Under the pieces are notes generated by a model. That model did not search any database. It was not told where the DNA came from and saw only the letters and a list, made by a program, of their open reading frames with translations. A stretch of DNA of 64,000 nt from a virus. The stretch is taken from IMG/VR virus record IMGVR_UViG_3300047476_001831, positions 1 through 64,000 of that record, one strand, 5' to 3'. Shown in pieces: positions 18,736 through 33,927 of the stretch (the stretch's first letter is position 1; every line of letters begins with the position of its first letter). A program made the translations under genes and the position numbers.

Positions 18736-19407
18736 ATGCTTGACTTCATAAAAATTACAATCGCGGCTTTCATCTTTTTCTCTGTTTTGGGTTATATGAA
18801 CGAAAACAATTTAACATTAGTTGAAATGTTTACAACTTTTCCTAATAGTGAAAAAATAGATTCAGTTAGTCTTAAAATTGATACGTATGAACAAATTGTT
18901 AGTGAATACCCAACTAATGAATCAACAATTTCTGAACCTACAGTTAACAATGAAACTGTAATTGTTAAAGCTTTGGGTAATGTTGATAATAGTGATTTGA
19001 CAGATGCCGTTAACATCATTAAAAATTTTTATGGTTATAATTGTGTTATTGGTAATGCCGAACCTATTACTGATGAACTTTATATACCTGGTACTACTGA
19101 AATCCTTAATGCTCAAACCTGTCTTGATAAGTTCAATACAAATAACAAAGTTGTATATATTGTTGACAAAAGACTTTGGGCTAGAGGTGAACATTTAAGA
19201 GGATACGCATCAGTCGGTGGTGGATTTGTAATTGTTCGTGGTGAAAAAAGTTTTTTACAAGAAACAATAATTCACGAAATTGGTCATACTCTTGGTTTAG
19301 GTCATTGTGATGATATGAGTTGTATTATGGCAGTTAATAATGACTTAGAGGATAGTGGTACTTTTTGTAACAAATGTAGAAATCAAATCAGTCATACTTT
19401 CCAATAA
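18736..19407 (+). CDS. Zinc metalloprotease (archaemetzincin/M54-like)
   Basis: HEIGHTLGLGHC..SCIM..FCNKC. Confidence 0.8.
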   Translation: MLDFIKITIAAFIFFSVLGYMNENNLTLVEMFTTFPNSEKIDSVSLKIDTYEQIVSEYPTNESTISEPTVNNETVIVKALGNVDNSDLTDAVNIIKNFYGYNCVIGNAEPITDELYIPGTTEILNAQTCLDKFNTNNKVVYIVDKRLWARGEHLRGYASVGGGFVIVRGEKSFLQETIIHEIGHTLGLGHCDDMSCIMAVNNDLEDSGTFCNKCRNQISHTFQ

Positions 19408-19415
19408 TTTAAACT

Positions 19416-19796
19416 ATGAAATCATCAACAGAAAAATTATTGAAATTTTACCAAGAAAATGGAATACTAGAGCTTAGTGAAGTAACAGGTCAATCCTTGG
19501 AAAAGTTAAATCAATTACTTAACCTTAATCTCAAAACATTTGAGGATATCAATTTTGAAAAACACGAGGAATTGGGTGGTGTAGTGGGTAGAATTACATT
19601 TGAAAATGGATATGGTGCATCAGTTGTTAGTCATATAATGTCATATGGTGGTAAACTAGGACTTTATGAGTTAGCCGTACTTGACAAAGAGGGTGAATTA
19701 ACTTATGATACACCTATAACAAATGATGTCGTAGGTCATTTAACTCCTAAAGAAGTAACAAATTATTTAATAAAAATCCAAGATTTAAAAAATTAA
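19416..19796 (+). CDS. Conserved phage hypothetical protein
   Basis: FENGYGASVV..SYGG..GLYELAVL motif. Confidence 0.7.
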   Translation: MKSSTEKLLKFYQENGILELSEVTGQSLEKLNQLLNLNLKTFEDINFEKHEELGGVVGRITFENGYGASVVSHIMSYGGKLGLYELAVLDKEGELTYDTPITNDVVGHLTPKEVTNYLIKIQDLKN

Positions 19797-19800
19797 AATT

Positions 19801-20073
19801 ATGCCAACAATTTATCAAGATGTTGAAGCTGAAGTCGATATTGATGTTGAAGATTTTATTGACGAATGCTCTGATAGAGAAATAGAAAAACTAATCAAAT
19901 ATTTGATTGCTGAAGGTAAATTACCCAAAACTTTAACGAAATATGGTCAGAGTCAAAATCTTTCAGTAAATGATGTTCTTTGGTATGAAACAATATCAAA
20001 AATACAGAGTAATAGATTAGCTATGACTGATGAGGAAATTGAAATAATTGAAAAAATTGCAAAAAGATTTTAA
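19801..20073 (+). CDS. Hypothetical protein
   Basis: ORF track. Confidence 0.6.
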   Translation: MPTIYQDVEAEVDIDVEDFIDECSDREIEKLIKYLIAEGKLPKTLTKYGQSQNLSVNDVLWYETISKIQSNRLAMTDEEIEIIEKIAKRF

Positions 20074-20075
20074 TC

Positions 20076-20252
20076 ATGTATATTATCATTAAAAAAATTG
20101 AACAACCCAACGGTGTGGTTCTTCCTGTAGTTATTTTGGATGCAAATAGTGAGGTGTGGGAATTCCCCACTTCTGAAGATGCTGAACACATCAGAGATAT
20201 ATTCGAGACGAACTCTGACTCAGGTCACAAATATGAAATAAAAAAGATTTAG
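20076..20252 (+). CDS. Small hypothetical protein
   Basis: 58 aa ORF MYIIIKKIEQPNGVVLPVV.., read manually. Confidence 0.5.
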   Translation: MYIIIKKIEQPNGVVLPVVILDANSEVWEFPTSEDAEHIRDIFETNSDSGHKYEIKKI

Positions 20253-20312
20253 AATTACTTGACAAGTTAGAATTAATCACTTAGGTTTTACAACACAATT
20301 AAAAGAAACGAT

Positions 20313-21710
20313 ATGAACTTCATTGATGCTTTACAATCAGAGGATACTTTAACGGAAAACGGAATGGTAACAAATTCTTCAACTTTGAACGAATGTGTAA
20401 ACCTATTCTTCACAATTGGTGCTATGAGAGGACAAGATAAGCAAAGACTTATTTCCACATTCTCAAAAGCATTCAATGAGAATCCGTTAACTGCATTGAA
20501 AATCTTATTTTGGGTTAGAGATGTAAGAGGTGGCGCAGGTGAAAGACAAATCTTCCGTGATATTCTAAAATATCTAGTGGAGAATCATCCGAATGTAGTA
20601 AAACAAAACATTCAAGCAATACCACATTTTGGTAGATGGGATGACCTTTCAGTTCTTTTTGGTACCGAGTTGGAAGCTGATGCTACCAATATGTTTGTAA
20701 GTGGTCTAATTGTAGAAAATGGACTATGTGCAAAGTGGATACCAAGAAAGGGTGTTATCTTCAATGCAATTAGAAAGGTATTGAAAACCACCCCTAAAAA
20801 CCTTCGTAATCTGTTGGTAGGAATTTCTAATACTGTTGAGCAAAAGATGTGTGCTAACCAATGGAATGAGATTGAGTATGAAAAGACTCCATCATTGGCT
20901 ATGGGTAGATACACAAAGGCTTTTGCAAAACACGACTTAGGTGGTTTTACTGAGTATTTAAATAAGTTAAAAAAAGGAGAAACCAAAGTCAATGCGGGTG
21001 CTGTATATCCTTACAATGTGGTTCAAACAATGAATCAAGGTAGTTGGGAATTAGCAAACGAGCAATGGAAATCTTTACCAAACTTTATGGAAGGTACAAC
21101 TGAAAGGATTTTACCTGTGGTTGATGTATCTGGGTCAATGGGTTCAGTAGTTTCTGGTAGTATAACTTGTCTAGATGTAGCAATTTCTTTGGGATTATAT
21201 ATCTCTGAAAGAAATGAAGGGGTGTTCAAAGATAGTTTCATTACTTTCTCTGAAAAACCTCAACTTCAAGTACTTTCAGGTTCATTGAGAGAACGTTACA
21301 ACCAAATGAGTCAAGCTGATTGGGGTATGAATACAAATCTTGAATTAGTATTTAATGTTGTCCTAAATCAAGCTTTGAAACACAAAGTTCTGCCTGAAGA
21401 TATGCCTTCTAAAATATTGATTATGTCTGATATGGAATTTGACCAAGCTACAAGACAATCTGAAAGTGCGATACAGATGATTAGAAGACAATATGAAGAA
21501 AGTGGTTATTCACTACCACAAATCATATTTTGGAACATCCAATCTAGGGGAGGAAACTTCCCAGTAAGACATAATGAATCGGGGACTGCATTAATCTCAG
21601 GACTTTCACCAAGTATTGTAAAGTCAGTATTGGGTGGAAAAGAGATGACACCAATATCTATTATGAATGAGACAATCAATTCAGAAAGATATTCAATCAT
21701 CGAGATGTAA
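20313..21710 (+). CDS. DUF2828-family TROVE/Ro60-like protein with C-terminal vWA domain
   Basis: TENG, RDVRGGAGER, GRWDDL, AKWIPR, vWA MIDAS DVSGSM, SDMEFD, FWN. Confidence 0.85.
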   Translation: MNFIDALQSEDTLTENGMVTNSSTLNECVNLFFTIGAMRGQDKQRLISTFSKAFNENPLTALKILFWVRDVRGGAGERQIFRDILKYLVENHPNVVKQNIQAIPHFGRWDDLSVLFGTELEADATNMFVSGLIVENGLCAKWIPRKGVIFNAIRKVLKTTPKNLRNLLVGISNTVEQKMCANQWNEIEYEKTPSLAMGRYTKAFAKHDLGGFTEYLNKLKKGETKVNAGAVYPYNVVQTMNQGSWELANEQWKSLPNFMEGTTERILPVVDVSGSMGSVVSGSITCLDVAISLGLYISERNEGVFKDSFITFSEKPQLQVLSGSLRERYNQMSQADWGMNTNLELVFNVVLNQALKHKVLPEDMPSKILIMSDMEFDQATRQSESAIQMIRRQYEESGYSLPQIIFWNIQSRGGNFPVRHNESGTALISGLSPSIVKSVLGGKEMTPISIMNETINSERYSIIEM

Positions 21711-22041
21711 AAGAAAAAGGAAAAATTGGTTCATAAAGAATGATTCCTGCAAACTAACAAACATTGAATCATTTATATAAGAACCGAGTTGGTTTACTCA
21801 TTTTCCCAATCGCAAGGGAATAAATAAAAAAATCAAAAAACTCATTCTGAGACCAATTTTTCCATTTTTCTTTACTTAATGAAACTTTTTAATTAATTTA
21901 GCGTTATATAGAACAAAGGATAGATTCAGCAAACTATAAATCAAAACTTGTAAATTTGAAAAAAACTATCCTGACAATTTAGGTAATAACGAATGGGTTC
22001 AGCAATTGACTTTTGAATGCAAACCAAAAAAACCATTCCGA
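21707..22041 (+). ncRNA. Three related structured RNA units (21737-21850, 21917-21974, 21991-22041)
   Basis: Each is stem + TTC(A/CT)GCAA + A-run + complementary stem; unit 1 sits inside a long stem (21707-21743 with 21842-21875). Confidence 0.55.
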
Positions 22042-22087
22042 ACCAAACTTTTTAATAATTTAGTAATACTTATATACAAATAAAACA

Positions 22088-22183
22088 ATGAGAAACTCAA
22101 TCAATCATATTAGTAAGTCAGTACAGCCGCAATTTAGCAATTGTTGGTCGACTAATCCGTATGGTTCAGATAGAGTGTCGTAA
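22088..22183 (+). CDS. Leader peptide 1 MRNSINHISKSVQPQFSNCWSTNPYGSDRVS (tRNA cluster 1 attenuator)
   Basis: 31-codon ORF; TGGTTCAG (22162-22169) is complementary to the terminator 5' arm. Confidence 0.75.
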   Translation: MRNSINHISKSVQPQFSNCWSTNPYGSDRVS

Positions 22184-22211
22184 TAGGTATAAAGTAATAA
22201 TTTTTATATGA

Positions 22212-22243
22212 GACCCTGAACCAAAAAAGTTTAGGGTTTTTTT
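22212..22243 (+). terminator. Attenuator terminator before tRNA cluster 1
   Basis: GACCCTGAAC-caaaaaa-GTTTAGGGTT followed by a U tract. Confidence 0.8.
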
Positions 22244-22245
22244 GT

Positions 22246-22257
22246 GTTCTTTGACAT
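22246..22257 (+). promoter_or_regulatory. boxA-like antitermination element
   Basis: GTTCTTTGACAT just before the first tRNA, resembling rrn boxA. Confidence 0.55.
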
Positions 22258-22273
22258 CGTGGGTAAAATATAC

Positions 22274-22346
22274 TCCCCCTTGGTATAATGGTTGATTACA
22301 TCAGATTTTGATTCTGAGGATGGTGGTTCGATTCCATCAGGGGGAA
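22274..22346 (+). tRNA. tRNA-Gln(TTG)
   Basis: Cloverleaf, TCAGA-ttTTGat-TCTGA. Confidence 0.9.
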
Positions 22347-22366
22347 CTTAAAAAAATTACAAAACA

Positions 22367-22398
22367 TTTGGAAATATCAAAAATTGATTGTAGTTTTG
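22367..22398 (+). promoter_or_regulatory. Bacteroidetes sigma-A-type promoter
   Basis: TTTG-N20-TAGTTTTG; similar at 22916, 25654, 30518. Confidence 0.65.
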
Positions 22399-22475
22399 TG
22401 GAAGAGTAAGGAAAGGTCGTAGGTAGCACTGTCCACAACCAGCCTTAAACGTGGTGGATACTTACTCTAATTTAT

Positions 22476-22551
22476 GGTGGGATTGCCAAGTTGGTCAAGG
22501 CGAATGGCTGAAGATCATTTAATGTAGGTTCGATTCCTACTCCCACCACCA
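22476..22551 (+). tRNA. tRNA-Phe(GAA)
   Basis: Cloverleaf, ctGAAga loop, encoded CCA. Confidence 0.9.
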
Positions 22552-22558
22552 AACAAAT

Positions 22559-22633
22559 GTGGTATGTACCCCAACTGGTAGAGGGGCATCATTGTGGATG
22601 ATGTATGTGTGGGTTCAAATCCCATCATACCAC
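22559..22633 (+). tRNA. tRNA-His(GTG)
   Basis: ttGTGga loop, encoded G-1:C73. Confidence 0.9.
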
Positions 22634-22643
22634 CAAACAAATT

Positions 22644-22726
22644 GGAAGAGGTCCGAATGGACGAGGACACTGTCTTGAAAACAGCTGGGCGTAATTGCTT
22701 TGGGGGTTCGATTCCCTTCTCTTCCG
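22644..22726 (+). tRNA. tRNA-Ser(TGA)
   Basis: ctTGAaa loop, long variable arm, G73. Confidence 0.9.
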
Positions 22727-22739
22727 CAACTTATAAAAT

Positions 22740-22811
22740 GTCTCTATGGTGAAAAGGCAATCACACTTGACTGTTAATCAAGTATTCCTGGTTCGAGTCC
22801 AGGTGGGGACG
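22740..22811 (+). tRNA. tRNA-Asn(GTT)
   Basis: CTTGA-ctGTTaa-TCAAG. Confidence 0.9.
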
Positions 22812-22820
22812 CAACTTTTT

Positions 22821-22893
22821 AGTCCCATAGTTCAACGGATTAGAACCTATCACTACGGATGATAAGATACCTGTTCGAATCGGGTTGGGACTA
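22821..22893 (+). tRNA. tRNA-Arg(ACG)
   Basis: TATCA-ctACGga-TGATA. Confidence 0.9.
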
Positions 22894-23131
22894 CAAAAAA
22901 AAACTTTACTTATTATTTGGAAATAAGAAAAACAAATTGTAGTTTTACATAACAATAAAAAATAATAAAAAAATGAGAAATTTAATGTTCATCTTGGTTT
23001 TCGGTTTTGTACTTAGTATTCTATTACCTCTTCCAAAATTAATAGGCACACCTATGACACTTGTTGTTTTAGGTTTGATTTTGGGAGTAGTGTCAATTTT
23101 AGAAAACACAAGAAAAAAAGTTTAATCAATT

Positions 23132-23216
23132 GGAGGGTAAAGTAATCAGGGTCATTACCACCGCCTGCTAAGCGAGTGATACCAATAGGTATGTGTTTCG
23201 AGTACACTGTCCTCCA
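23132..23216 (+). tRNA. tRNA-Ser(GCT)
   Basis: ctGCTaa loop, long variable arm. Confidence 0.8.
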
Positions 23217-23378
23217 CAAAAAATTAAAAAATGTTATTAATTATTGGTCTTTTATTTTTGATAATTGGAGTAATCTTATTAGTTTTGTCTTTCATCAAAA
23301 GAAACTCGGATTTGTTTGTAATAGGATTTATATTTCTAATCGTTCTTTTGTTGGGAATTATTTATGGTTTAATAATAT

Positions 23379-23453
23379 AGGGGTGTAGCTCAGTTGGTTA
23401 AGAGTACTAGTTTTGGGAACTAGTGGTCGCAGGTTCGAGCCCTGTCACCCCTA
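23379..23453 (+). tRNA. tRNA-Pro(TGG)
   Basis: CTAGT-ttTGGga-ACTAG. Confidence 0.92.
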
Positions 23454-23463
23454 CAATACATTT

Positions 23464-23538
23464 TGTCCTGTAACTCAGTTGGTTTAGAGTACTACGCTGA
23501 TACCGTAGGTGCCGTGGGTTCAAGTCCCACCAGGACAA
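23464..23538 (+). tRNA. tRNA-Ile(GAT)
   Basis: CTACG-ctGATac-CGTAG. Confidence 0.9.
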
Positions 23539-23562
23539 CTATTTTTTTAATACTTAAAAATT

Positions 23563-23967
23563 ATGAATCAAGAATTTGTACCCTTTGAAGAATCCTTGGA
23601 ATTAAAAGAAATGGGATTTGATGAATTATGTTTTGGATATTACTCGAATGGTCAAATAACGAATGTTGACTTGAATTGGGTAAGTACTTCAATCAATCCC
23701 CCCACTTTAATTGATGGTGGATTCTATAGTATGAAAAATAGTGACACCACTAATGAACTTAATTGCACTGCACCAATCTATTCACAAGTATTCCATTGGT
23801 TTATGGAAACCCATAAAATAGATTCCAGTGTGATGGAAATGAAGTTTGTGATTGAGTCTGATGAAGATTTACCGAAATGGTTTTATGGGTTCAATAATTA
23901 TGACGAAACAAAATTAGGATGTTTAAGACAATTAATTAGAAAGGTTAAAAAAAATGGAAAGGGTTAA
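23563..23967 (+). CDS. Phage hypothetical protein
   Basis: EFVPFE.SLELKE.GFDE.C..APIYSQVF.WF. Confidence 0.7.
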   Translation: MNQEFVPFEESLELKEMGFDELCFGYYSNGQITNVDLNWVSTSINPPTLIDGGFYSMKNSDTTNELNCTAPIYSQVFHWFMETHKIDSSVMEMKFVIESDEDLPKWFYGFNNYDETKLGCLRQLIRKVKKNGKG

Positions 23968-24211
23968 AATTGGTGAATACAAAATTGGGGATAATTTGAT
24001 TATCGAATTTGGTGAAAACAATCCCAACAATAAGGAAGTTCAGGTTAGAGCGATAGTTGATATGGAGGTTGTAATTTTATTGGATAAGAATCAAAATTAT
24101 TTAATGGAAACAGTAAAATATATGAATCTTTTATGTAGATTTGGGAACGTTATTCGTGAAAAGAATGATGTGAGATTTCAAACCGAATTAATTCACGACC
24201 CAAGAATCTAA
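23954..24211 (+). CDS. Hypothetical protein
   Basis: ORF track. Confidence 0.55.
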   Translation: MERVKIGEYKIGDNLIIEFGENNPNNKEVQVRAIVDMEVVILLDKNQNYLMETVKYMNLLCRFGNVIREKNDVRFQTELIHDPRI

Positions 24212-24214
24212 ATT

Positions 24215-24511
24215 ATGCTAAAAAGAATTATCAAAAGGAGTACTTGTAAGTTTTACGAATCAATTAGAAACCGATTTAATATGGAGTGTGTGTTGAGAGA
24301 AGGTGATTATGTTTATGATATTGAGGATGGGAGTGAATGGTTGTTATTGGAAAATCCCAATAAAGGTGGTTCGGCAAAAAGTATTTGTACATTTGCGCCT
24401 GAAGGTTGTGTGTATAAAATAGGAACACCATTCAAAAGATGTTATTTTGATGAGTTTGGTAAATTGAGAAAATACCTCAAAAGAGGTATGAACCCAGAAA
24501 GAAATTTTTAA
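24215..24511 (+). CDS. Hypothetical protein
   Basis: ORF track. Confidence 0.55.
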   Translation: MLKRIIKRSTCKFYESIRNRFNMECVLREGDYVYDIEDGSEWLLLENPNKGGSAKSICTFAPEGCVYKIGTPFKRCYFDEFGKLRKYLKRGMNPERNF

Positions 24512-24516
24512 TTAAT

Positions 24517-24591
24517 GACCCTGTGGCTTAGCTGGTTTAAAGCACAATACTTTTAATATTGGGATCGGGAGTTCGAATCTCCCCAGGGTCA
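24517..24591 (+). tRNA. tRNA-Lys(TTT)
   Basis: CAATA-ctTTTaa-TATTG. Confidence 0.92.
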
Positions 24592-24816
24592 CTTAGGTAT
24601 AGTTTGGATTATTAATCCCATTGAACTTGCGGTTACTTTATATGTGAATAATGAAGGGGTAAAATTAATACCCATTTGTTTGAAATCGAAAACTTCGAAT
24701 TCTTGTTCCTCATAAACTCCAACAATCGAACTTGTTTCGTTATTGATGTATAAGGAATCAAAGGTTTTTAAGTTTATTACTAAACCTATTTCAACTGGGG
24801 GGATAAGTATTGTCAT
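24589..24816 (-). CDS. Hypothetical protein, antisense to the tRNA cluster
   Basis: 75 aa ORF preceded by TATTTAT on the minus strand. Confidence 0.5.
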   Translation of the reverse strand: MTILIPPVEIGLVINLKTFDSLYINNETSSIVGVYEEQEFEVFDFKQMGINFTPSLFTYKVTASSMGLIIQTIPK

Positions 24817-24860
24817 TTAATGGTTTTGTTAAATAAATATTGAATTTAAATTAAATTTTT

Positions 24861-25544
24861 ATGTCAACAACTTGGAATGAAATTTGGAAAAATAGGAAGG
24901 TAGAATTTGATTCGTTGGATTATTCTAATTTATTGAAACTGAATGGTTATGATGGTCCTCAAAGTAATCTAACTCCACAAAATTTAAATCTAGCTCATAA
25001 GATTTATGCGGAAAAAATGAATTTAAAACCTAATCAGAGTATTTTTGAGGTTGGTTGTGGGGCAGGTTCTTTCCTGTACAATTGGTATAATAGTGGACAT
25101 AAAGTTGGTGGATGTGACATATCTAAAAACTTATTGGAATGTACAAAAAAAATCTTACCAAGAGGTGAATGGTATTTAGCTTCAGATAGTGAATTTGAAA
25201 AAGAGCCTAAATGGGATCACTTGGTATCTTTTGGTGTGTGTATGTATTTAACACCAAGAGAGGTTTTGAATTTAATCGATAGAATGATAAATAAAGCGAA
25301 TTTTAGTGTATCATTATTCGAAATCTCTGATTTAGACAAGATGATAGATTGTGAAAAAGAAAGAAGAAGAATGATTCCTAATTATGAGGTTAAATACAAA
25401 GACTTAAACCATTTTTATCATAGTAAAAATGATATTTCTGAACATTTAAATAAGTTAGGTTTAAATTATACCATTTATGATCAATACATACCTGGTTATG
25501 AAAATTCTAAATGGAGATTTAATGTAACTATTAATTTGGTTTGA
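24861..25544 (+). CDS. Class I SAM-dependent methyltransferase
   Basis: IFEVGCGAG motif I, GCDIS motif II. Confidence 0.85.
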   Translation: MSTTWNEIWKNRKVEFDSLDYSNLLKLNGYDGPQSNLTPQNLNLAHKIYAEKMNLKPNQSIFEVGCGAGSFLYNWYNSGHKVGGCDISKNLLECTKKILPRGEWYLASDSEFEKEPKWDHLVSFGVCMYLTPREVLNLIDRMINKANFSVSLFEISDLDKMIDCEKERRRMIPNYEVKYKDLNHFYHSKNDISEHLNKLGLNYTIYDQYIPGYENSKWRFNVTINLV

Positions 25545-25558
25545 TTAATATAAATTCT

Positions 25559-25633
25559 ACTTCCTTAGCTCAGTTGGTTTAGAGTAACATCCTTACAAGG
25601 TGAAGGTCATTGGTTCGAATCCAATAGGAAGTA
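25559..25633 (+). tRNA. tRNA-Val(TAC)
   Basis: ctTACaa loop, cloverleaf. Confidence 0.88.
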
Positions 25634-25694
25634 CAAAAAAACTTTACAAAGTGTTTGGAAATATGAAAAACAAGTTGTAAGTTTGTAAGACACT

Positions 25695-25770
25695 AGTTTT
25701 GTAGCTTAATGTGTGAAAGCGTTCAATGGGTAACTGTTGAAAGATTTAGGTTAGAATCCTGTCAGGACTA
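25695..25770 (+). tRNA. Degenerate tRNA-like element with non-canonical anticodon arm
   Basis: Acceptor AGTTTTG/CAGGACT, D and T arms present, 8-nt loop GGGTAACT. Confidence 0.45.
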
Positions 25771-25972
25771 CAAAAAAAATGTACCTCGATGCCTCTCATA
25801 AGAACGGCACACTAGCAGAGGTCTTGTTGCTTGTAAACGAATAGCCCAAGGTATAAGTTAGGAAGCTTAACTCAACCTATCCCCCACTGACGAGTGGGGT
25901 GAAGTTGGGGGATTAAAAAGAAATATTATATATCTGCAATATATAAAATTCATTAACTTAAAAACAATCAAT

Positions 25973-26938
25973 ATGAAAAAATTAACTTTATTTATTTTAA
26001 TCAATTTTTTTTTAAACAATTTTAATTGTTACTCTCAAATAAAAACTTTAGAAGTCAGTAAACAAAAAGAAATTTTAGATACAATAACATATGACAGCTC
26101 AAAAAATTTTTTAGGCGAGAATGTTTATATGTATAAAAATCAAGAATTATATGTAATGCCACAACACCCTAGTTTAAGGAAATATGGGTATAGTTATTTT
26201 TACACTGACTATAAAAAGGAGGTAAAATACAAGTGTTGTGATGGTATTGGTTCAAAATATAGTGATTTAGTTGGTCAATATTTTCTTGTCGTAGATATAA
26301 TAAAAATAGAAAAATCTGTTGATGATATTGTAGATACCGATAAGTTTTACCTCAAATTAAGGAATAAAAAAACATCTGAAATACTATACTTCAAATATAA
26401 CACCAAATATGAATCTGATTTTCCTTTTTTAGTTGTTGGATATTATGAAAAACAAAATGAAATTAATGTTGGTAAAGAAATTATTCTAAAAAATGGAAAA
26501 TGGTTAGAAATATGGTATGGTAAAGGAGAACCAATAATAGATTTAAAGACCGGTAGTATTTTGAATATTCAACAAGGTAGTAAATGGAAATGTGTAAATG
26601 TTATGGTTGAGGAGAAATGTTTTACTTTTGCTATGATTTTAGAAAATAATTTAGGACACACAATATTTTTACCATTATCATCATATAATAAACCAAGTTT
26701 CAAGATACAATGGGGAATATATAATCCGATAGAGGTAAAAAATTATATTGAAAGATTTGGTGTTGAGAATTGGGAAATAATTTTGAATAGTGAAATAAAA
26801 ATTGGATTTACTGAAGAAATGGTTAAACTTGCTTGGGGGTTACCTAAAAAAATAAACAGAACGTCTGGTTTGGATCAATGGGTTTATGAAAATCAATATC
26901 TTTACTTTAACAATGGTAAATTAGAAGCGTATAATTAA
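25973..26938 (+). CDS. Secreted/periplasmic hypothetical protein (host-like)
   Basis: Signal peptide; C-terminal IGFTEEMV..AWG.P..IN..QWVY..YLYF.NGKL domain. Confidence 0.7.
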   Translation: MKKLTLFILINFFLNNFNCYSQIKTLEVSKQKEILDTITYDSSKNFLGENVYMYKNQELYVMPQHPSLRKYGYSYFYTDYKKEVKYKCCDGIGSKYSDLVGQYFLVVDIIKIEKSVDDIVDTDKFYLKLRNKKTSEILYFKYNTKYESDFPFLVVGYYEKQNEINVGKEIILKNGKWLEIWYGKGEPIIDLKTGSILNIQQGSKWKCVNVMVEEKCFTFAMILENNLGHTIFLPLSSYNKPSFKIQWGIYNPIEVKNYIERFGVENWEIILNSEIKIGFTEEMVKLAWGLPKKINRTSGLDQWVYENQYLYFNNGKLEAYN

Positions 26939-26948
26939 TTATAAAATT

Positions 26949-27033
26949 GGTCGGGTGGCCGAGTTGGTTAAGGCAATAGTCTGCAAAACTATCGAAAAAC
27001 ATTTCATCGTGGGTTCAAGTCCCACCCCGACCT
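26949..27033 (+). tRNA. tRNA-Cys(GCA) with extended variable region
   Basis: ATAGT-ctGCAaa-ACTAT, U73, 16-nt variable region. Confidence 0.85.
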
Positions 27034-27085
27034 CAAAAAATAGTTCAGTTAGTTATTTTTACTCATTTTGTTGATATTTATATAT

Positions 27086-27817
27086 ATGAAATGGAATGAT
27101 AACGATATTGAAAAATTGATTGATTTAGTTAATCAAGGATTAAAACCGAATAGGATTGCTGAGATTTTTGGGGTTTCGTATAAAACGATAACTAACAAAA
27201 TGTTTAGGATGGGTTTACAAGTAATTTATACGACAAATAAAACTTGTAAAAATTGTGGTAATAGTTTTGAATCTTATTTGAGTAAAAACAAATTGTTTTG
27301 TAATTCATCTTGTTCAACGACATTCAATAATAAAAATCGTAAACATACTGAAGAAACTAAAAATAAAATTGCAAAAACCCTAAAGAATAAGCCAACTAAA
27401 CCTAAAGTTAAAAAAATCAAAACTTGTAGGATTTGTAATAACGAGGTTGTTGAAAAATATAAGATTGTTTGTGAAGATTGTAGATTGGAGTATTATCAAT
27501 ATTATAGACCTTCTTGTACTTTTCAGTTTGATGTAAAAGATTATCCACAAGAATTTGATTTGAGTTTAATTGAACAACATGGATGGTATTCTCCAACAAA
27601 TAAAAAAAATAATTTAGGGGGTGTCACAAAAGACCATAAATATTCAGTGATGGAGGGTTTTAGAAATAAGATAGACCCAAGTATTTTATCACATCCTGTA
27701 AATTGTAAATTACTTTTATTTTCAGAGAATTCATCCAAAAATGATAAATCATCATTAACCTTAAATGAACTACTTGAAAATATTGAAATTTGGAATAAAA
27801 AATACGGAAATAGTTAA
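27086..27817 (+). CDS. Putative free-standing homing endonuclease (HTH, Zn fingers, NUMOD3-like, HNH-like C-terminus)
   Basis: CKNC..FCNSSC, HTEETKNKI, DHKYS..HPVNC..N..KN; inserted between tRNAs. Confidence 0.6.
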   Translation: MKWNDNDIEKLIDLVNQGLKPNRIAEIFGVSYKTITNKMFRMGLQVIYTTNKTCKNCGNSFESYLSKNKLFCNSSCSTTFNNKNRKHTEETKNKIAKTLKNKPTKPKVKKIKTCRICNNEVVEKYKIVCEDCRLEYYQYYRPSCTFQFDVKDYPQEFDLSLIEQHGWYSPTNKKNNLGGVTKDHKYSVMEGFRNKIDPSILSHPVNCKLLLFSENSSKNDKSSLTLNELLENIEIWNKKYGNS

Positions 27818-27845
27818 AAGTTATTATTATCTTTACATAACATAT

Positions 27846-27920
27846 GGGGATGTAGCTCAATTGGTTTAGAGTGGTGGTCTCCAAAACCACAGGTTATAGG
27901 TTCGAGTCCTATCGTCCTCG
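27846..27920 (+). tRNA. tRNA-Trp(CCA)
   Basis: GTGGT-ctCCAaa-ACCAC. Confidence 0.92.
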
Positions 27921-27934
27921 CAAAACTTAAAAAA

Positions 27935-28135
27935 ATGAAAGAAATTAAATACAGATTTTTGTTAACTTTTTATTCGGCTTTTATTTTTTTTCTAATTATG
28001 ATTCCACAGATTCTAATTAGTAAACACATTTTTAATTTGAAATTTAATGAATATCTAATGTGGGGTGTTTTATATATCTCATATGATTTCACAACAAAAT
28101 TTATTTTACCCAAGAAAAAGAAAAAAGATATTTAA
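27935..28135 (+). CDS. Small membrane protein
   Basis: Hydrophobic ORF. Confidence 0.5.
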   Translation: MKEIKYRFLLTFYSAFIFFLIMIPQILISKHIFNLKFNEYLMWGVLYISYDFTTKFILPKKKKKDI

Positions 28136-28136
28136 T

Positions 28137-28457
28137 ATGGTAAGGGATTACATAATCGAGACATTATTGAAAATAAAAGAACACGATGAAAAGGTACATA
28201 AACTCTATACTCTCGGAGTTGATATTATTGACTTTGACAACTCCTTTTCGCAACTTGAAAAAAGTATTCCGACCTTACTCCGAAAAGAAAAAGACAAACA
28301 ATTCGGATACATTCAGGACTTAGTTGGTTGGTGGTTATACGAAGATGTTGATAAAATAATTTATGTTGATGATATAGAGATTAATGTTGACAAAGTCGTG
28401 GAATTTGTTGACTATTTATTAAGAGAGTATGGAACAAATGACATACCCACAAATTAG
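28137..28457 (+). CDS. Hypothetical protein
   Basis: Probable start MVRDYII; WWLYE motif. Confidence 0.6.
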   Translation: MVRDYIIETLLKIKEHDEKVHKLYTLGVDIIDFDNSFSQLEKSIPTLLRKEKDKQFGYIQDLVGWWLYEDVDKIIYVDDIEINVDKVVEFVDYLLREYGTNDIPTN

Positions 28458-28459
28458 AT

Positions 28460-29101
28460 ATGGCTTATATTGAAAGTAATTTTTTCCCACTTAAAGTTTA
28501 TGTTCGTAATGAATATATGTATCAGAACCAAAAAGGTTTTGGGGAGTTTACTGAGGCTGTAATCACATCAATTAGATGTTTACCTGGACAAGCAACATTA
28601 TTTCAAGTATTGTTAAATAATGGTGTTATGAGAGATAAATTACCCTCTCATGCCTTGTTAACAAAACCTGAATTACCAAATCCTGATTTTCCATTTCATT
28701 ACCTACAAATATGGAACTCTTTTTCTTACAATTTCTCACTTATACAATTGAATTATTTACCTAATGCACCAGTCAGTGTTTTTATGAAAAACAAAAAATG
28801 GATGGATGGTAATTATTTTGCAACAATAAATTGGGGATCAAGTGATATGAACACCAATCTAAGTTTAGCTGAGGATGGTATGGAACACAAGTGTCACCAT
28901 ATTATATTACTAAAAAATGGACAAATTGCATTACAACCGAATAATAGAATTAAATGGTTTGAAGCAAGTTTTGTAACCAAAGATTTTCCTAAAAAACCTG
29001 ATTATTTGGTTAATGACCAAATATGGAATTGTGAAACAACAGAAAAGTGGGCAACTGAAGATTCGGATTATATGTTCTACGATAACGATTTAAAAAATTA
29101 A
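28460..29101 (+). CDS. Conserved phage hypothetical protein
   Basis: VRNEY, LQIWNSFS, EHKCHH..GQIALQPNNRI.W. Confidence 0.75.
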   Translation: MAYIESNFFPLKVYVRNEYMYQNQKGFGEFTEAVITSIRCLPGQATLFQVLLNNGVMRDKLPSHALLTKPELPNPDFPFHYLQIWNSFSYNFSLIQLNYLPNAPVSVFMKNKKWMDGNYFATINWGSSDMNTNLSLAEDGMEHKCHHIILLKNGQIALQPNNRIKWFEASFVTKDFPKKPDYLVNDQIWNCETTEKWATEDSDYMFYDNDLKN

Positions 29102-29103
29102 TT

Positions 29104-29487
29104 ATGTTCAAATATAAAGTAGAAGTAAAAAATTCAAAGAATCCTAAAATGGGATTAGGTTTGTTTGCAAATGAAATTATAAAAAGTGACACAATTGTTT
29201 GGGAGTTTATTGAGGGTTTGGATATAAGAATAGACCAAGATACCTTAAACAAATTAAATGATACTCAAAGGGAGTTTTTCAAGAAATATGGGTGGAAGGA
29301 AGATGATGGAAATTATTATTCCTCTTGTGATTTAACGAATTTTATAAATCATAGTTTTACCCCCAATCTGATTTGTGTTGGAGAGATAATAAAAACAAAT
29401 AAAGATATTGAAATTGGTGAAGAATTATTTATCAATTATGAAGAATTCGATGTTGAGTTCGACACTTACAAAAATGAACTTATTTAA
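29104..29487 (+). CDS. SET-domain protein (lysine methyltransferase-like)
   Basis: GLGLFA, FINHSF.PN, DIEIGEELFINY. Confidence 0.85.
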   Translation: MFKYKVEVKNSKNPKMGLGLFANEIIKSDTIVWEFIEGLDIRIDQDTLNKLNDTQREFFKKYGWKEDDGNYYSSCDLTNFINHSFTPNLICVGEIIKTNKDIEIGEELFINYEEFDVEFDTYKNELI

Positions 29488-29496
29488 TTTTTAAAG

Positions 29497-29997
29497 ATGA
29501 AAGAAATGGTAATTGTAAACTTCTACAAAAAATATGAAGCAAATTGGGATGAACTCCAAATGATAGCCTTGGACACAATTGCCAAAATGGAAGAAAGTTT
29601 GGAAGATGTTGAAATTGGTGAACTTTCAGTTTATCAACAATATGAAGATTATAGGACAGCTTGTATGCAAGGATTAAAAACATTTATCCTTCAAGTATTA
29701 AATGATTGGGAGAATATGAACATTTTAGTGTTGAATGGGGAGTTTTATAAGAAATTCGAGTTCTTAGAAATGGAAGGGATTCTAAACGATTGGGAATACT
29801 CAAGTTTATATAGAAATTCAAAAGAACTATTCACCTTCTTTAATAAAGAAAAGTTTCAACTAACACCAGAACAATTTGATTTTATTCATGCTCTTTATTC
29901 AAAAAATGATGATGTAATTTGTAACTTATTGTCATTTGAATATGAGGTAAGGGAAATAAGTGAAGAAGATGACAATACTGACGATTTAATTGATTAA
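29497..29997 (+). CDS. Hypothetical protein
   Basis: ORF track. Confidence 0.6.
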   Translation: MKEMVIVNFYKKYEANWDELQMIALDTIAKMEESLEDVEIGELSVYQQYEDYRTACMQGLKTFILQVLNDWENMNILVLNGEFYKKFEFLEMEGILNDWEYSSLYRNSKELFTFFNKEKFQLTPEQFDFIHALYSKNDDVICNLLSFEYEVREISEEDDNTDDLID

Positions 29998-29999
29998 TT

Positions 30000-30311
30000 A
30001 TGAAAAACAATATTTTTACAAAAGAAATAAAAGTCGCTGATGCTAATACATCAGTTAGTGAATTACTAAGAGAAACACTAATTAATTTCAGTTGGGGTTT
30101 CTTTGGTAACTCAATTGTTGTGTTTATGGCCAAAGAAATTGATATCGCAGTATTGGTTAATTTCTTCTTATATTATATCCTAATTTCAATGATTGTTAAT
30201 CGTGCTAAATATGAAACTAACTTGGGGAAATTCTTTGTTTTACCCGGTTCAGCAGCTCTTGGAGCATTCACAGGATATAAAGTAGCACAAATTATTTCAA
30301 CTTTTTTGTAA
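30000..30311 (+). CDS. Membrane protein
   Basis: Three hydrophobic segments. Confidence 0.6.
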   Translation: MKNNIFTKEIKVADANTSVSELLRETLINFSWGFFGNSIVVFMAKEIDIAVLVNFFLYYILISMIVNRAKYETNLGKFFVLPGSAALGAFTGYKVAQIISTFL

Positions 30312-30373
30312 CATACTTGACACTTTTTCGTTTTATCATTATATTTAATAAAAAAATAGTAAAAACTTCACAA

Positions 30374-30445
30374 ATGAAATACAATCTCTATATGGACTTA
30401 ACGATAGCAACTGAGGGTAGAAACCCTCGGATGGAGATGATATGA
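30374..30445 (+). CDS. Leader peptide 2 MKYNLYMDLTIATEGRNPRMEMI (tRNA cluster 2 attenuator)
   Basis: 23-codon ORF; internal hairpin GAGGGT/ACCCTC; GATGGA (30430-30435) is complementary to the terminator 5' arm TCCATC. Confidence 0.75.
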   Translation: MKYNLYMDLTIATEGRNPRMEMI

Positions 30446-30472
30446 TAATAGGTTTTAATTGTTAATAATGTC

Positions 30473-30508
30473 AATCCATCTTCCTAAAAAAAAGATGGAT
30501 TTTTTTTT
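30473..30508 (+). terminator. Attenuator terminator before tRNA cluster 2
   Basis: AATCCATCTT-loop-AAGATGGATT followed by a U tract. Confidence 0.8.
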
Positions 30509-30552
30509 GTCACAAAGTTTGGAAATTAGAAATGGTTTTGTAACTTTGTAGT

Positions 30553-31032
30553 ATGAGAAAACAAACACCATACATATCATCTTCAGTCGCCATAAAAGGG
30601 ATTAATGATTCAGTACTTGCGAAGTCAGAGAACAACGATTGTGTAGTAAGAGCTTTTGCTTCAGCATACAATGTATCTTATGATTTTGCACACAAAAAAG
30701 TCGCTGAATTATTTGGAAGAAAAAATAGACAAGGGACATTTTGTTTCAGTATTGTAATGAGACAAATGGAACTTCAAGATGTAAGGATAAATAAGAAAAA
30801 AGTTCAAACAATAAGAAAAGATGTGAATCTATCTTATTGGGTAAAAGTAAAAGGTGTGAACAAATTAAGAAATATGACAACTGCAAAGTTTTTAGAGGAT
30901 TTTCCCACTGGAACTTACATTGTCACAGTCAAAGGACATGCTTTTACAATAAAGGATGGAGTGGTAATTGGAAATCCAGAAGATGCAACTCAAAGAAAAA
31001 AAAATATCTTTGGTGCTTGGAAAATAGGATAA
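30553..31032 (+). CDS. Conserved phage protein (NDCVVRA family)
   Basis: ENNDCVVRAFA..GTYIV.V.GHA..IKDG. Confidence 0.75.
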   Translation: MRKQTPYISSSVAIKGINDSVLAKSENNDCVVRAFASAYNVSYDFAHKKVAELFGRKNRQGTFCFSIVMRQMELQDVRINKKKVQTIRKDVNLSYWVKVKGVNKLRNMTTAKFLEDFPTGTYIVTVKGHAFTIKDGVVIGNPEDATQRKKNIFGAWKIG

Positions 31033-31074
31033 GATTACTTAACTTTGTAAAGTTAATTGAAATTGAGGAATAAA

Positions 31075-31148
31075 GGGCTATTGGTGTAGAGGTCGAACAT
31101 GCCACCCTGTCACGGTGGAGATCAGGGGTTCAAATCCCCTATAGCTCG
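31075..31148 (+). tRNA. tRNA-Asp(GTC)
   Basis: CCACC-ctGTCac-GGTGG. Confidence 0.92.
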
Positions 31149-31307
31149 CAAAAAAAATTAATATTATGACAAAGTTTATTATTGCTTGTATTGGTATAAT
31201 TATTTTGGGTTTTATTGGGAACTACATCATTAAAAAATATCCAAATTCTTGGGTTGCAAAATGGTGGGATGATATGACTGATAATGCCCATTGGTGGTAA
31301 AATATAT

Positions 31308-31380
31308 GTTCCATTCGACAAGGGGTCTAAGTCACCTCCCTTTCACGGAGGAGTCATGGGTTCGAATCCCATATGGAATA
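31308..31380 (+). tRNA. tRNA-Glu(TTC)
   Basis: CCTCC-ctTTCac-GGAGG. Confidence 0.92.
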
Positions 31381-31430
31381 CAAATCTCAGAAGTAATTAA
31401 TCTGGGGCTGAGAGGTTCGAAACTCTCGAA

Positions 31431-31559
31431 TGGCTATGGTGTAAGGGCACACGGTCCCCCTGGGCGACAATATTGCGAAAGGGTATCCTTAATAGGAGAG
31501 AGTATTGTGAAACGATAGAAGTAAGGGACTGGGGAAGGGTTCGAATCCTTTTTAGTCAA
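31431..31559 (+). ncRNA. tRNA-like element with a large structured insert replacing the anticodon loop
   Basis: TGGCTA/TAGTCA acceptor, D arm, CGGTCCC/GGGACTG stem enclosing about 66 nt, GGTTCGAATCC T arm. Confidence 0.5.
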
Positions 31560-31568
31560 CAAACATAA

Positions 31569-31640
31569 TGCAAGGAAGTGTAGAGGTTGCACATTGGGCT
31601 CATAACCCAAAGGTAGTGGGTTCGATTCCCACCCTTGCGT
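31569..31640 (+). tRNA. tRNA-Met(CAT), initiator-like
   Basis: TTGGG-ctCATaa-CCCAA (three G-C pairs), weak U1-G72 pair. Confidence 0.85.
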
Positions 31641-31649
31641 CAAACACAA

Positions 31650-31724
31650 TGCAAGATGGACTGGAAGTGGTTCCAGCTCGGTCTCATAAGCCGTACCATG
31701 TGGGTTCGACTCCCACTCTTGCAT
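31650..31724 (+). tRNA. tRNA-Met(CAT)
   Basis: ctCATaa loop, cloverleaf. Confidence 0.8.
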
Positions 31725-31737
31725 CTAAATTATTAAT

Positions 31738-31822
31738 GGGAAAGCGCCGAAGTAGGAGAGTCGGGGATGACTGTAAATCATTTGCTTTAGCTGAGGGGGT
31801 TCGAATCCCTCTTTTCCCACCA
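31738..31822 (+). tRNA. tRNA-Tyr(GTA)
   Basis: ctGTAaa loop, long variable arm, encoded CCA. Confidence 0.88.
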
Positions 31823-31868
31823 CAATGCAGTAACAGCTCAATGAAGTTTGAAACATAAACAATAAAAA

Positions 31869-31941
31869 GCATCAATAGCTCAATTGGTAGAGTCCTTGTC
31901 TTCCAAACAAGATGTTACGAGTTCGAATCTCGTTTGATGCT
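31869..31941 (+). tRNA. tRNA-Gly(TCC)
   Basis: CTTGT-ctTCCaa-ACAAG, U73. Confidence 0.92.
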
Positions 31942-31961
31942 CAAAATATAAATAAACCGCT

Positions 31962-32171
31962 ATGAATCAGTTACAATTTAATAATCTTAAAGTGGGTGAT
32001 AAAATACATATAAAATCTCGTGATGGTTTATACACCTTCTTGAAAAAAGATTTTAGATATGGAGAAATACACATTACTTGTAACAGATGGCAATATGAAG
32101 AAAATCCAATAAGGATAACAACTTTTGATGACTTCAAATGTTTAGCTGGTGGTTTATGGAGGATAAGATAA
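31962..32171 (+). CDS. Hypothetical protein
   Basis: ORF between tRNAs. Confidence 0.55.
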   Translation: MNQLQFNNLKVGDKIHIKSRDGLYTFLKKDFRYGEIHITCNRWQYEENPIRITTFDDFKCLAGGLWRIR

Positions 32172-32178
32172 ATTAAAT

Positions 32179-32256
32179 GGGGACGCATGTACCAAGGCAG
32201 GGCGACAGACATTTGCAATGTCCGTGAGGTGAGTTCGATTCTCACCGTTTCCACCA
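32179..32256 (+). tRNA. tRNA-Ala(TGC)
   Basis: ttTGCaa loop, G3:U70, encoded CCA. Confidence 0.85.
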
Positions 32257-32268
32257 AAAAAAAGTTAT

Positions 32269-32871
32269 ATGAAAAAAGTATTTTTATTTTTGATGTGTTT
32301 TGTATTACTCACATCGTTTTCAACCCCACCTTTGAGGGTTTTATTCATTGGAGATAGTTTAACTTGTTATACTGGTGGTTGGCAAGACCAAGTGTGTAGA
32401 TATTTTGGATATCAAAGTGTCAATAGGTCAGTTGGTGGTAAAAGAACTGAATGGATGAGGTTGACATTAAATGAACATTTGAAGAGGGATTCATCTTTCA
32501 CTTATTGTTTTATCTATGGGGGTTGTAATGATGCTTATTCTTATGTGAATCTTCAAGGCGCTGTAAACAATATACAGATGATGGTGGATAGTTGTAATAG
32601 GAGGGGAATTAAGCCTATTGTAATCGTTGGTTATGACCCAGCTAAAGTATCAATCAAAACTGTTTATGATGCTGCAACCACAAAGAGATGTAGAGAAAGA
32701 TATGTGGAGTTTCAAAAGTTAATGGTTCATCCTGAAACTGGACTTAAAAATTGTAAAATCATTCCAAAGGATACAACAGTAACATTTCAGGATGCCGGTG
32801 ATGGAATCCATCTTGGTGGAAATGGACAAAGGAAATTTGCTAATTGGGTAATAAATCACTTAAATCAATAA
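32269..32871 (+). CDS. Secreted SGNH/GDSL hydrolase
   Basis: Signal peptide, FIGDSLT, GGCND, DGIH. Confidence 0.88.
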   Translation: MKKVFLFLMCFVLLTSFSTPPLRVLFIGDSLTCYTGGWQDQVCRYFGYQSVNRSVGGKRTEWMRLTLNEHLKRDSSFTYCFIYGGCNDAYSYVNLQGAVNNIQMMVDSCNRRGIKPIVIVGYDPAKVSIKTVYDAATTKRCRERYVEFQKLMVHPETGLKNCKIIPKDTTVTFQDAGDGIHLGGNGQRKFANWVINHLNQ

Positions 32872-32873
32872 TA

Positions 32874-33146
32874 ATGAAATATATAATTCCAACAGTTTTT
32901 ATTACAATTATGTGGATTTTTTTAATTACTGGAATCCTTAATACTATCCCAACACCTAAAATAGAAAATGGGGATATTCTTAAAAATTGTGTAATTGATA
33001 CGATGTATGTTACAGAATCCCCATCTACAATTGAATATGGAAAACGATATAATTACAAGACAAGTTGTGATGAAGTTATTTTAACCAAGAGAAAGGATGT
33101 ATATTCAATTGGTGATACAATAACTTATGTATATAAAAAAAGATAA
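32874..33146 (+). CDS. Membrane-anchored hypothetical protein
   Basis: N-terminal TM; start taken at MKYII. Confidence 0.5.
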   Translation: MKYIIPTVFITIMWIFLITGILNTIPTPKIENGDILKNCVIDTMYVTESPSTIEYGKRYNYKTSCDEVILTKRKDVYSIGDTITYVYKKR

Positions 33147-33154
33147 TACACTTT

Positions 33155-33228
33155 GCCGACATAGCTCAGCTGGCCAGAGCACGTGATTTGTAATCTCGGG
33201 GTCGTGGGTTCAAATCCCTCTGTCGGCT
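33155..33228 (+). tRNA. tRNA-Thr(TGT)
   Basis: ttTGTaa loop, GCCGACA/TGTCGGC acceptor. Confidence 0.88.
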
Positions 33229-33311
33229 CAAATATTTTTCAAAATTATTCCACTATTGTTGTGTGAATTAAAAACTCTTCTTATATTTGTGAACACTAAA
33301 ACGGAAACACA

Positions 33312-33542
33312 ATGGCAAAAGAGAAAAAAACAATTCAAGTTGAGTTTATTAAAAACTTTGCAAATCTACAATTAGCAAATCCAAATAACTCAATTCAAGC
33401 GAAACTTGGAGTAATTGCGATGTTAGAAAAGGTTTTAAGTGAAGCAAATGCTTACAAAGGTTATATGTATTTGTCTTTAGGTCCTAACAATACACCACCT
33501 GAATTTGGTAGTGAGGGATGGGCATCAAGAAAGTATTTCTAA
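33312..33542 (+). CDS. Hypothetical protein
   Basis: ORF after a TATATTTG promoter-like site. Confidence 0.6.
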   Translation: MAKEKKTIQVEFIKNFANLQLANPNNSIQAKLGVIAMLEKVLSEANAYKGYMYLSLGPNNTPPEFGSEGWASRKYF

Positions 33543-33921: not shown

Positions 33922-33927
33922 TAATAT

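Follow-up and report, generated by a model that had tools for sequence, protein, structure and literature searches.

The 64,000-nucleotide stretch of viral DNA analysed here (positions 1 to 64,000 of the IMG/VR virus record IMGVR_UViG_3300047476_001831; hereafter, the window) carries two blocks of tRNA genes on the plus strand, and each block is preceded by a short open reading frame (ORF) and an intrinsic terminator. The first of these leader units (unit 1) is probably a ribosome-mediated leader-peptide transcription attenuator, in which the regulatory codons would constitute a checklist of the tRNA species encoded downstream. A preliminary description of the stretch had proposed such a multiplexed tRNA sensor, and computational tests on the codon match, the conservation, the second unit and independent loci support it. 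The anatomy, the conservation, the selection on the ORF and the codon-tRNA match were computed here; translation, stalling, readthrough and the physiological trigger are what we infer. Leader-peptide attenuation itself is known, and the new points are the tRNA genes as targets and the checklist of one codon per species.

Leader units and their match to the tRNA blocks

Leader ORF 1 (22088-22183, plus strand) has 31 codons from ATG to TAA, as had been described, and its codons 3-21 form the proposed sensor block. Every codon of this block falls in the box of a block-1 tRNA. In agreement with the earlier claim, both Ser boxes are used, Ile is written only as ATC or ATT, and CGN is absent from this leader (sequence type A, see below). 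The codons from 22 onward are mixed, and 24 of 30 leader 1 codons belong to block 1. The 13 tRNAs listed previously for block 1 were all recovered using ARAGORN at a relaxed threshold and Rfam: Gln, Phe, His, Ser(tga), Asn, Arg(acg), Ser(gct), Pro, Ile(gat), Lys, Val, Cys and Trp. Default ARAGORN missed both Ser tRNAs; the relaxed threshold found them, and a whole-record Rfam search found one. The tRNA-Gln(ttg) gene (22274-22347) is the only gene strictly between terminator 1 and the next promoter-like motif. The remaining genes of block 1 lie at 22476-27921 on the plus strand with interspersed ORFs, and an odd tRNA-like gene is located between Val and Cys.

Unit 2 (30374-30508) stands in the same position ahead of the second block. 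Leader ORF 2 (30374-30445, plus strand; 23 codons) is kept in the relatives L003, L005 and L006, and the unit is 93% conserved in three relatives. Codons 3-16 cover all 11 species of block 2, namely Tyr, Leu(CTN), Met, Asp, Leu(TTR), Thr, Ile(ATA), Ala, Glu, Gly and Arg(AGR), and the sole outsider among them is Asn. In total, 17 of 22 leader 2 codons are read by block-2 tRNAs. Terminator 2 follows at 30473-30508 (plus strand), and GGATGGA, close to the 3' end of leader 2, can pair with the 5' arm of this terminator. A pairing of regions 1 and 2 and an inner hairpin, as described for unit 1 below, are also present. Block 2 (31075-36571, plus strand) comprises Asp, Glu, two Met, Tyr, Gly, Ala, Thr, Arg(tct), a split Leu(taa), Ile2(cat) and Leu(tag).

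The match was tested with whole ORFs, and no window was picked afterwards. The tRNAs of the own block read 41 of the 52 codons after the two ATGs, where the best possible partition gives 43. A count of 41 is reached by 6.7 × 10⁻⁵ of random 13/11 partitions of the 24 decoding families, by 1.2 × 10⁻⁴ of random 30 + 22 codon windows of phage genes, and by 2.4 × 10⁻⁵ of random sequences with the window composition. As many as 23 of the 24 tRNA species have a codon in the correct leader, compared with a mean of 14.0 in the gene-window null (P = 3 × 10⁻⁶) and 15.1 in the random-sequence null (P = 3 × 10⁻⁵).

The RNA of unit 1 can adopt two exclusive pairings. The intrinsic terminator (22210-22243, plus strand; regions 3 and 4) has the stem 22210-22221/22229-22240 and a run of seven T at 22237-22243; it had been placed at 22212-22243, and the start of the stem is slightly corrected here. 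Region 2 (22159-22171, plus strand), near the end of the leader ORF, contains the core TGGTTCAG (22162-22169), which is the 5' half of the antiterminator. The perfect complementarity asserted earlier is confirmed as an exact 8-bp duplex between TGGTTCAG and CTGAACCA (22216-22223) in the terminator 5' arm. The core begins 11 nt past codon 21, consistent with the spacing noted before, and lies 12-19 nt 5' of the leader stop codon. When codon 21 is in the A site, the ribosome extends to about 22160, just before region 2. The energy of the antiterminator duplex is -12 to -17 kcal/mol, with P values of 0.002-0.12 versus shuffles.

In the minimum free energy fold of the unit (-39 kcal/mol), region 2 pairs with region 1 (22100-22110, plus strand; codons 5-8), giving the classical four-region layout for untranslated RNA. 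Types B, D and E fold with the same pairing, and type C with a shorter one. A hairpin inside the leader (22127-22147, plus strand; codons 14-20) is 100% paired in eight sequences, and in type D two pairs are changed on both sides; it is a possible pause hairpin. Between the stop codon and the terminator, the fold contains an A/T-rich hairpin (22187-22209, plus strand) with GTAATAAT. On the plus strand from 22 to 37 kb only two intrinsic terminators are found (22210-22243 and 30473-30508), and each is behind a short leader ORF. The distance from the T-run of terminator 1 to tRNA-Gln is 30 nt, with no scored promoter.

Relatives and independently found loci

The unit ahead of tRNA-Gln was collected from seven IMG/VR and eleven metagenome contigs of lake phages, and the sequences fall into five types, A-E. 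The ATG, the peptide core, the terminator and the hexamer ATGGTT are kept across the types. The ATG of leader 1 is invariant in eight distinct relatives, and indels leave the frame open in every type; the peptide varies in length and sequence over its last third. Since type D reads ATGGTT in a different frame, this stretch is conserved as RNA. Terminator 1 is 100% paired across eight sequences. For the antiterminator, 92% of the cells in eight distinct aligned sequences are paired, versus 18-58% when the pairing is slid.

Within types A and B, ten polymorphic sites of leader 1 were found, of which eight are synonymous and two non-synonymous, where 23% synonymous changes are expected (P = 2.5 × 10⁻⁴). 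The pattern indicates that leader 1 is under purifying selection. Because of this 8:2 excess, the frame is presumably read, or at least codon identity is selected. The leader is thus kept in five types with a synonymous excess, which bears out the conservation expected in the preliminary description.

The expectation that the leader codon content tracks the tRNA content, against shuffled pairings, held in all four relatives with known tRNA sets. Using the tRNA partition of each relative, the P values are 10⁻⁵ for type B, 1.4 × 10⁻³ for type C and 3 × 10⁻⁵ for type D; these relatives share ancestry and are not independent. The species covered by leaders 1 and 2 are 10/10 and 9/9 in type B, 12/14 and 8/8 in type C, and 13/13 and 9/9 in type D. 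In type D, the trio of Phe, Ser(AGY) and Asn codons is permuted yet retained, and a CGT codon is present alongside tRNA-Arg(acg).

The Ile2 tRNA and its codon change leader together. The CAT tRNA at 36406 resembles tRNA-Ile more than the Met tRNAs, and is thus assigned as tRNA-Ile2; its orthologue in types B and D (88-89% identical) is a CAT tRNA of block 1, flanked by Pro and Ile(gat). In leader 1, ATA is used by types B, D and E only. The presence of tRNA-Ile2 in block 2 and of ATA in leader 2 (twice) is confined to the lineage of the window. The leader 2 ATA codons sit in a burst of four substitutions within nine bases, in which Thr and Ala are retained.

A boxA-like site had been reported behind the terminator, and TGTTCTTTGACAT is indeed present at 22245-22257, as a single occurrence in the window. 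It is part of a 17-base box, GTTCTTTGACATCGTGG (22245-22261, plus strand), which is kept in all types; in type D the box stays beside the tRNA and not beside the terminator. In what we take to be the E. coli boxA, 10 of 13 letters agree. The boxA of rRNA operons is a consensus that heads stable-RNA operons and is bound by NusB-NusE. The exact 17-mer GTTCTTTGACATCGTGG heads or lies inside host tRNA operons of two Bacteroidota genomes (L185 and L256; Thr-Tyr and Gly-Leu-Lys), and the box may be a host-type signal of stable-RNA operons. An assignment as the host rRNA-operon box is unlikely: only one of 120 exact genome matches precedes a 16S gene, in an alphaproteobacterium, and none of the Bacteroidota matches does.

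This box offered an independent test. Viral contigs were scanned for the 17-base box, and the hits were filtered by a T-run just upstream, where ORFs were not considered. The loose box pattern gave mostly chance matches, and five loci passed the T-run filter (L170, L070, L091, L177 and L133). Their order is a ATATTTAA motif, a short ORF, a terminator, the box and tRNAs, and the identical 17-mer follows the terminator in all five. The leaders of these loci are unrelated to leader 1. In L170, codons 2-18 encode K, T, Y, Q, G and P exclusively (17/17 core codons), and the downstream tRNAs are Pro, Gln, Tyr, Thr, Gly and Lys (6/6 covered). In L091, extra Arg(AGA) and Phe codons are matched by Arg(tct) and Phe tRNAs. 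Random family sets match the box-found loci equally well in 4 × 10⁻⁵, 8 × 10⁻⁶ and 9 × 10⁻⁵ of cases, where the species listed are 6/6, 8/8 and 5/5.

Among more distant phages, Vibrio phage KVP40 (AY283928.2, reverse strand; L047:1595-1760) has a 37-codon ORF (1595-1708) followed by a hairpin (1735-1757), a terminator and the main tRNA array. This ORF is unannotated in KVP40, annotated in phages F86 and PG216, and conserved in 50 Vibrio phage records; the leader of this family starts like leader 1 (M-x-x-S-x-x-H). The family uses 18-20 different amino acids in 37-38 codons (all 20 in PVA8), which is a weak signal (P of about 0.02). No antiterminator duplex beating shuffles was found in it, and four synonymous versus eight non-synonymous changes were counted. 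The KVP40 ORF and terminator are possibly related to the checklist leaders, and are given here as a lead only. In the distant relatives G006 (19-tRNA array) and G005, a terminator and a leader ahead of the tRNAs were not found; thus, the checklist design is not universal.

Proposed mechanism, objections and alternatives

In the proposed mechanism, a phage-type promoter would start an mRNA with a short A-rich 5' end, and a ribosome would translate the 31-codon leader. If all codons are read fast, the ribosome would reach the end of the ORF and cover region 2 (22159-22171); the terminator (22210-22243) would then form, and transcription would end before tRNA-Gln. If any of the twelve tRNA species on the list is in short supply or not charged, the ribosome would stall at a codon from 2 to about 20 and region 2 would be free. 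Free region 2 would capture the 5' arm of the terminator once it is made, and the polymerase would continue into tRNA-Gln and the block. This readthrough would supplement basal transcription from promoter-like motifs inside the block. In untranslated RNA, regions 1/2 and 3/4 would pair, resulting in termination. Unit 2 would act likewise for the complementary block, and the two leaders would jointly cover all 24 decoding families. The outcome would be either a negative-feedback control of supply or a response to tRNA loss, for which anticodon nucleases or starvation may be the trigger.

Several observations weigh against this mechanism. Most species are represented by one or two codons, with no runs as in classical attenuators; attenuator kinetics with single codons are expected to give low sensitivity to mild shortage, and thus the sensitivity of the present leaders should be low. 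The match is incomplete in places. Leader 1 of types A, B and C has no Arg(acg) codon, and the sensor block of type D includes Thr and Leu(CTG) codons. Type B has lost five tRNAs (Asn, Arg(acg), Ser(gct), Val and Gly), and 18 codons for these species are still present in its leaders. Preferred codons are much less frequent in the leaders than in genes (P = 10⁻⁵), but no such difference is seen from open out-of-frame windows (P = 0.29). As out-of-frame windows are equally poor, rare-codon enrichment was dropped as evidence. The equilibrium folds retain the terminator. When a 30-nt ribosome mask was slid along both ORFs, the terminator was kept in every case except at codon 9 of unit 2. Since the terminator wins in the equilibrium folds, the switch must be kinetic. 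In the trp attenuator, the antiterminator is likewise not the equilibrium fold, and the choice is kinetic.

The remaining objections concern bypass. A conserved promoter-like motif follows each terminator, past tRNA-Gln in unit 1 and 10 nt past the T-run in unit 2; thus, most tRNAs can be made without readthrough. Attenuator 1 would therefore strictly gate tRNA-Gln alone, and readthrough would otherwise add to the basal supply. A weak -10-like TAAAAT (22264-22269) could start tRNA-Gln independently. One reading is that the host-type promoters would act in early infection, and the phage-type promoter with the attenuator later. RNA runs supplied only contigs (Logan) of 85-95% relatives, which show neither transcript ends nor levels; one such contig spans the leader, the terminator and tRNA-Gln, and its library is possibly DNA.

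The same anatomy and the same selection would be found in a translation-coupled attenuator that senses overall speed, the nascent peptide, a protein or a small ligand, with the codon-tRNA match as a by-product. Single codons per species speak against fine sensing and fit such a signal, as does the constant order of the peptide core across types (H-I, S-V-Q-P-Q, C-W-S); the comparable ORF of the KVP40 family also retains a V-Y-L-A-N-P core. We regard this possibility as unlikely, as it leaves unexplained why the codon table is split between the two leaders exactly as the tRNA genes are, why ATA moved along with tRNA-Ile2, and why an unrelated leader is limited to the six amino acids of its six tRNAs. 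In addition, the C-terminal part of the peptide varies freely, even to the point of a frame change. It is rather improbable that leader 1 is an ordinary small-protein gene, with the hairpin ending an upstream late-promoter unit, the tRNAs using the following promoters, and the match arising from coincidence and shared descent. Purifying selection is expected of a protein gene too, a promoter-like motif is located behind each terminator in all relatives, and terminator 2 also closes a long run of plus-strand ORFs after tRNA-Trp. Against this, tRNA-Gln lies so close behind terminator 1 without a scored promoter, the conserved alternative pairing would have no explanation, and the codon match (P ≤ 10⁻⁴ under three nulls) recurs in an independent leader family; moreover, conservation within the C-terminal third is confined to the RNA motif and does not extend to the peptide.

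An untranslated structured RNA, that is, a small RNA or a protein-binding leader with an incidental open frame, is very improbable. The strong predicted structure, the codon usage resembling out-of-frame sequence and the lack of a Shine-Dalgarno sequence would agree with it. However, the genes of this phage generally lack this sequence (2 of 60 have one), the RNA matches no Rfam family, and the 8:2 synonymous excess, the invariant ATG and the frame kept open through indels would not be expected of it. The checklist attenuator thus stands as the favoured reading of unit 1. Its extension, that large phages generally use such control, with each tRNA block under its own checklist leader and the loss of a single tRNA inducing only the block that replaces it, is about evenly balanced between true and false.

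Short leader ORFs that sense more than one amino acid are known from amino-acid operons of enterobacteria, namely the ilvGMEDA leader, which senses Leu, Val and Ile, and thrL, which senses Thr and Ile. The present units resemble these attenuators in the short leader ORF, the four pairing regions and the exclusive antiterminator and terminator, which are known here from sequence, and in the stop codon, whose position would let a ribosome that completes the ORF mask region 2. They differ in that the targets are tRNA genes and not biosynthetic enzymes, and in that 11-13 decoding families are present, mostly once or twice each, in place of runs of two or three amino acids. They also belong to a phage of a probable Bacteroidota host and have a putative basal promoter behind the terminator. 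In the pheST attenuator of E. coli (pheM leader), the ribosome stalls on codons of the cognate amino acid and controls a gene of the translation apparatus; that system senses a single amino acid, controls a synthetase in place of tRNAs, and has no sequence relation to the present leaders. T-box riboswitches are similar in that tRNA status chooses between terminator and antiterminator before translation-related genes. A T-box, however, contains no ORF and recognises uncharged tRNA by direct contact with its specifier codon and T-box sequence, whereas the ORF here is under coding selection. The T-box family RF00230 gave no match at the gathering threshold in 19000-39000. In the same range and at the same threshold, Rfam gave tRNA matches only, and no curated leader family (His, Trp, Thr, Leu and others) was matched. 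A stalled ribosome on a short upstream ORF also switches downstream expression in the erm and cat leaders and in toiL of topAI; unlike the present units, these answer ribosome-targeting drugs, without a codon-to-gene correspondence.

The reason for phage tRNA genes has been debated for decades, and we know of no account of how phages time tRNA production. If the checklist reading is true, leader codons naming the downstream tRNAs would be a direct sensor of tRNA supply, and the reach of classical attenuation would grow to a dozen decoding families in place of two or three amino acids, and to tRNAs as well as enzymes. It would also provide an annotation rule, in which the leader codon set predicts the extent of a tRNA operon, and a compact natural part that senses the loss of a single tRNA. 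The possibly related ORF and terminator of KVP40, a cultured Vibrio phage, would allow bench tests. According to the abstracts of three studies, phage tRNAs can substitute for host tRNAs cut by defence nucleases (PMC10264068, PMC11555353, PMC11464382). Such counter-defence would give a reason for making replacement tRNAs on demand, and nucleases may be linked to the present units in this way. Control of phage tRNA genes by a leader peptide is absent from these abstracts. No description of it was found in the literature searched, which did not cover subscription journals.

Genomic setting and other features

The window is taken from an 82-kb virus record, which is estimated to be 27% complete and has 30% G+C. 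The gene upstream of leader 1 (20313-21710) encodes a DUF2828/DUF7788 protein (TROVE-like). As its relatives include a gene of Vibrio phage KVP40 (48% identity), the virus is taken to be a large T4-like phage. Phage database searches with the leader region and the surrounding 22 kb as queries gave no match. Gene starts are A-rich, and leader 1 has the same A-rich context without a Shine-Dalgarno sequence as 58 of 60 phage genes.

Two families of promoter-like motifs were found. The motif ATATTTAT[AT] has 19 plus-strand sites in the window (e.g. 12035, 13130, 27074, 48011 and 62431), located 12-30 nt 5' of many ATG starts and of most gene starts, and is probably the own, late-type promoter of the phage. 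The second family, TTTGGAAAT...TAnnTTTG (TTTG-N18-21-TAnnTTTG), gave 12 matches where 4.5 are expected, and agrees with what we take to be the Bacteroidota promoter consensus. A Bacteroidota host is likely, because this motif fits the consensus and Shine-Dalgarno sequences are absent. Near-identical copies of the form TTTGGAAAT-N14-TTGTAnnTTT[G/A] are kept in relatives within the tRNA blocks at 22367-22398, 22916-22947, 25654-25685 and 30518-30548. The preliminary description had named internal promoters at 22367, 22916 and 25654; the first and the last are matches to TTTG-N18-21-TAnnTTTG, whereas 22916 is a near match only. The motif at 22367-22398 (plus strand; TTTGGAAAT...TAGTTTTG) is a candidate bypass or basal promoter, and a like motif is located behind tRNA-Gln in all four types. 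The motif directly behind terminator 2 (30518-30548, plus strand) is also kept in all four types.

Ahead of leader 1, a promoter-like stretch AACTTTTT ... CTTATATAC (22046-22077, plus strand) is kept in types A and B and may serve as the promoter; types C and D and L041 carry the phage motif ATATTTAT[AT] at this place. The preceding region (21834-22045), between the DUF2828 gene and leader 1, holds three repeats related to each other (AAAAAAC..ATTC.GA..), and the promoter-like stretch occurs there a second time, as AACTTTTTAAT..TTAG. Ahead of leader 2, a promoter-like TTGACA-N17-TATATT (30317-30345, plus strand) is invariant in relatives, and its -10 part overlaps TATATTTAA (30340-30348), which is similar to the phage motif.

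Types B and C, and also unit 2, carry the motif GT(T)AATAAT between the leader stop codon and the terminator. Both units of the window share it (22195-22203 and 30461-30469), and the type A units share TAATAGGT at the stop codon. These common sequences suggest that units 1 and 2 are paralogues or have a common pause or binding site.

Several features lie between or within the tRNA genes. The tRNA-like gene at 25695-25771 (Rfam, 43.5 bits) has an 8-base anticodon loop according to ARAGORN and is immediately preceded by a promoter-like motif; it may act as a decoy or in the reading of frameshifts. About 70 nt between a promoter-like motif and tRNA-Phe (22400-22472) have self-complementary ends, AGAGTAAG ... 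CTTACTCT, and may form a small structured RNA. Two short and strongly hydrophobic ORFs lie between tRNA genes at 22973-23125 (50 amino acids) and 23231-23380 (49 amino acids). In the type B relative L044 (G001:79000-96000), ARAGORN predicted a tRNA with the anticodon TTA, which may read ochre codons, at position 12570 of the locus, counted on the reversed stretch. The split tRNA-Leu(taa) of block 2 (35350-36401) is interrupted 3' of its anticodon by about 970 nt that include an HNH endonuclease ORF (35441-36304); the tRNA gene is intact in relatives.

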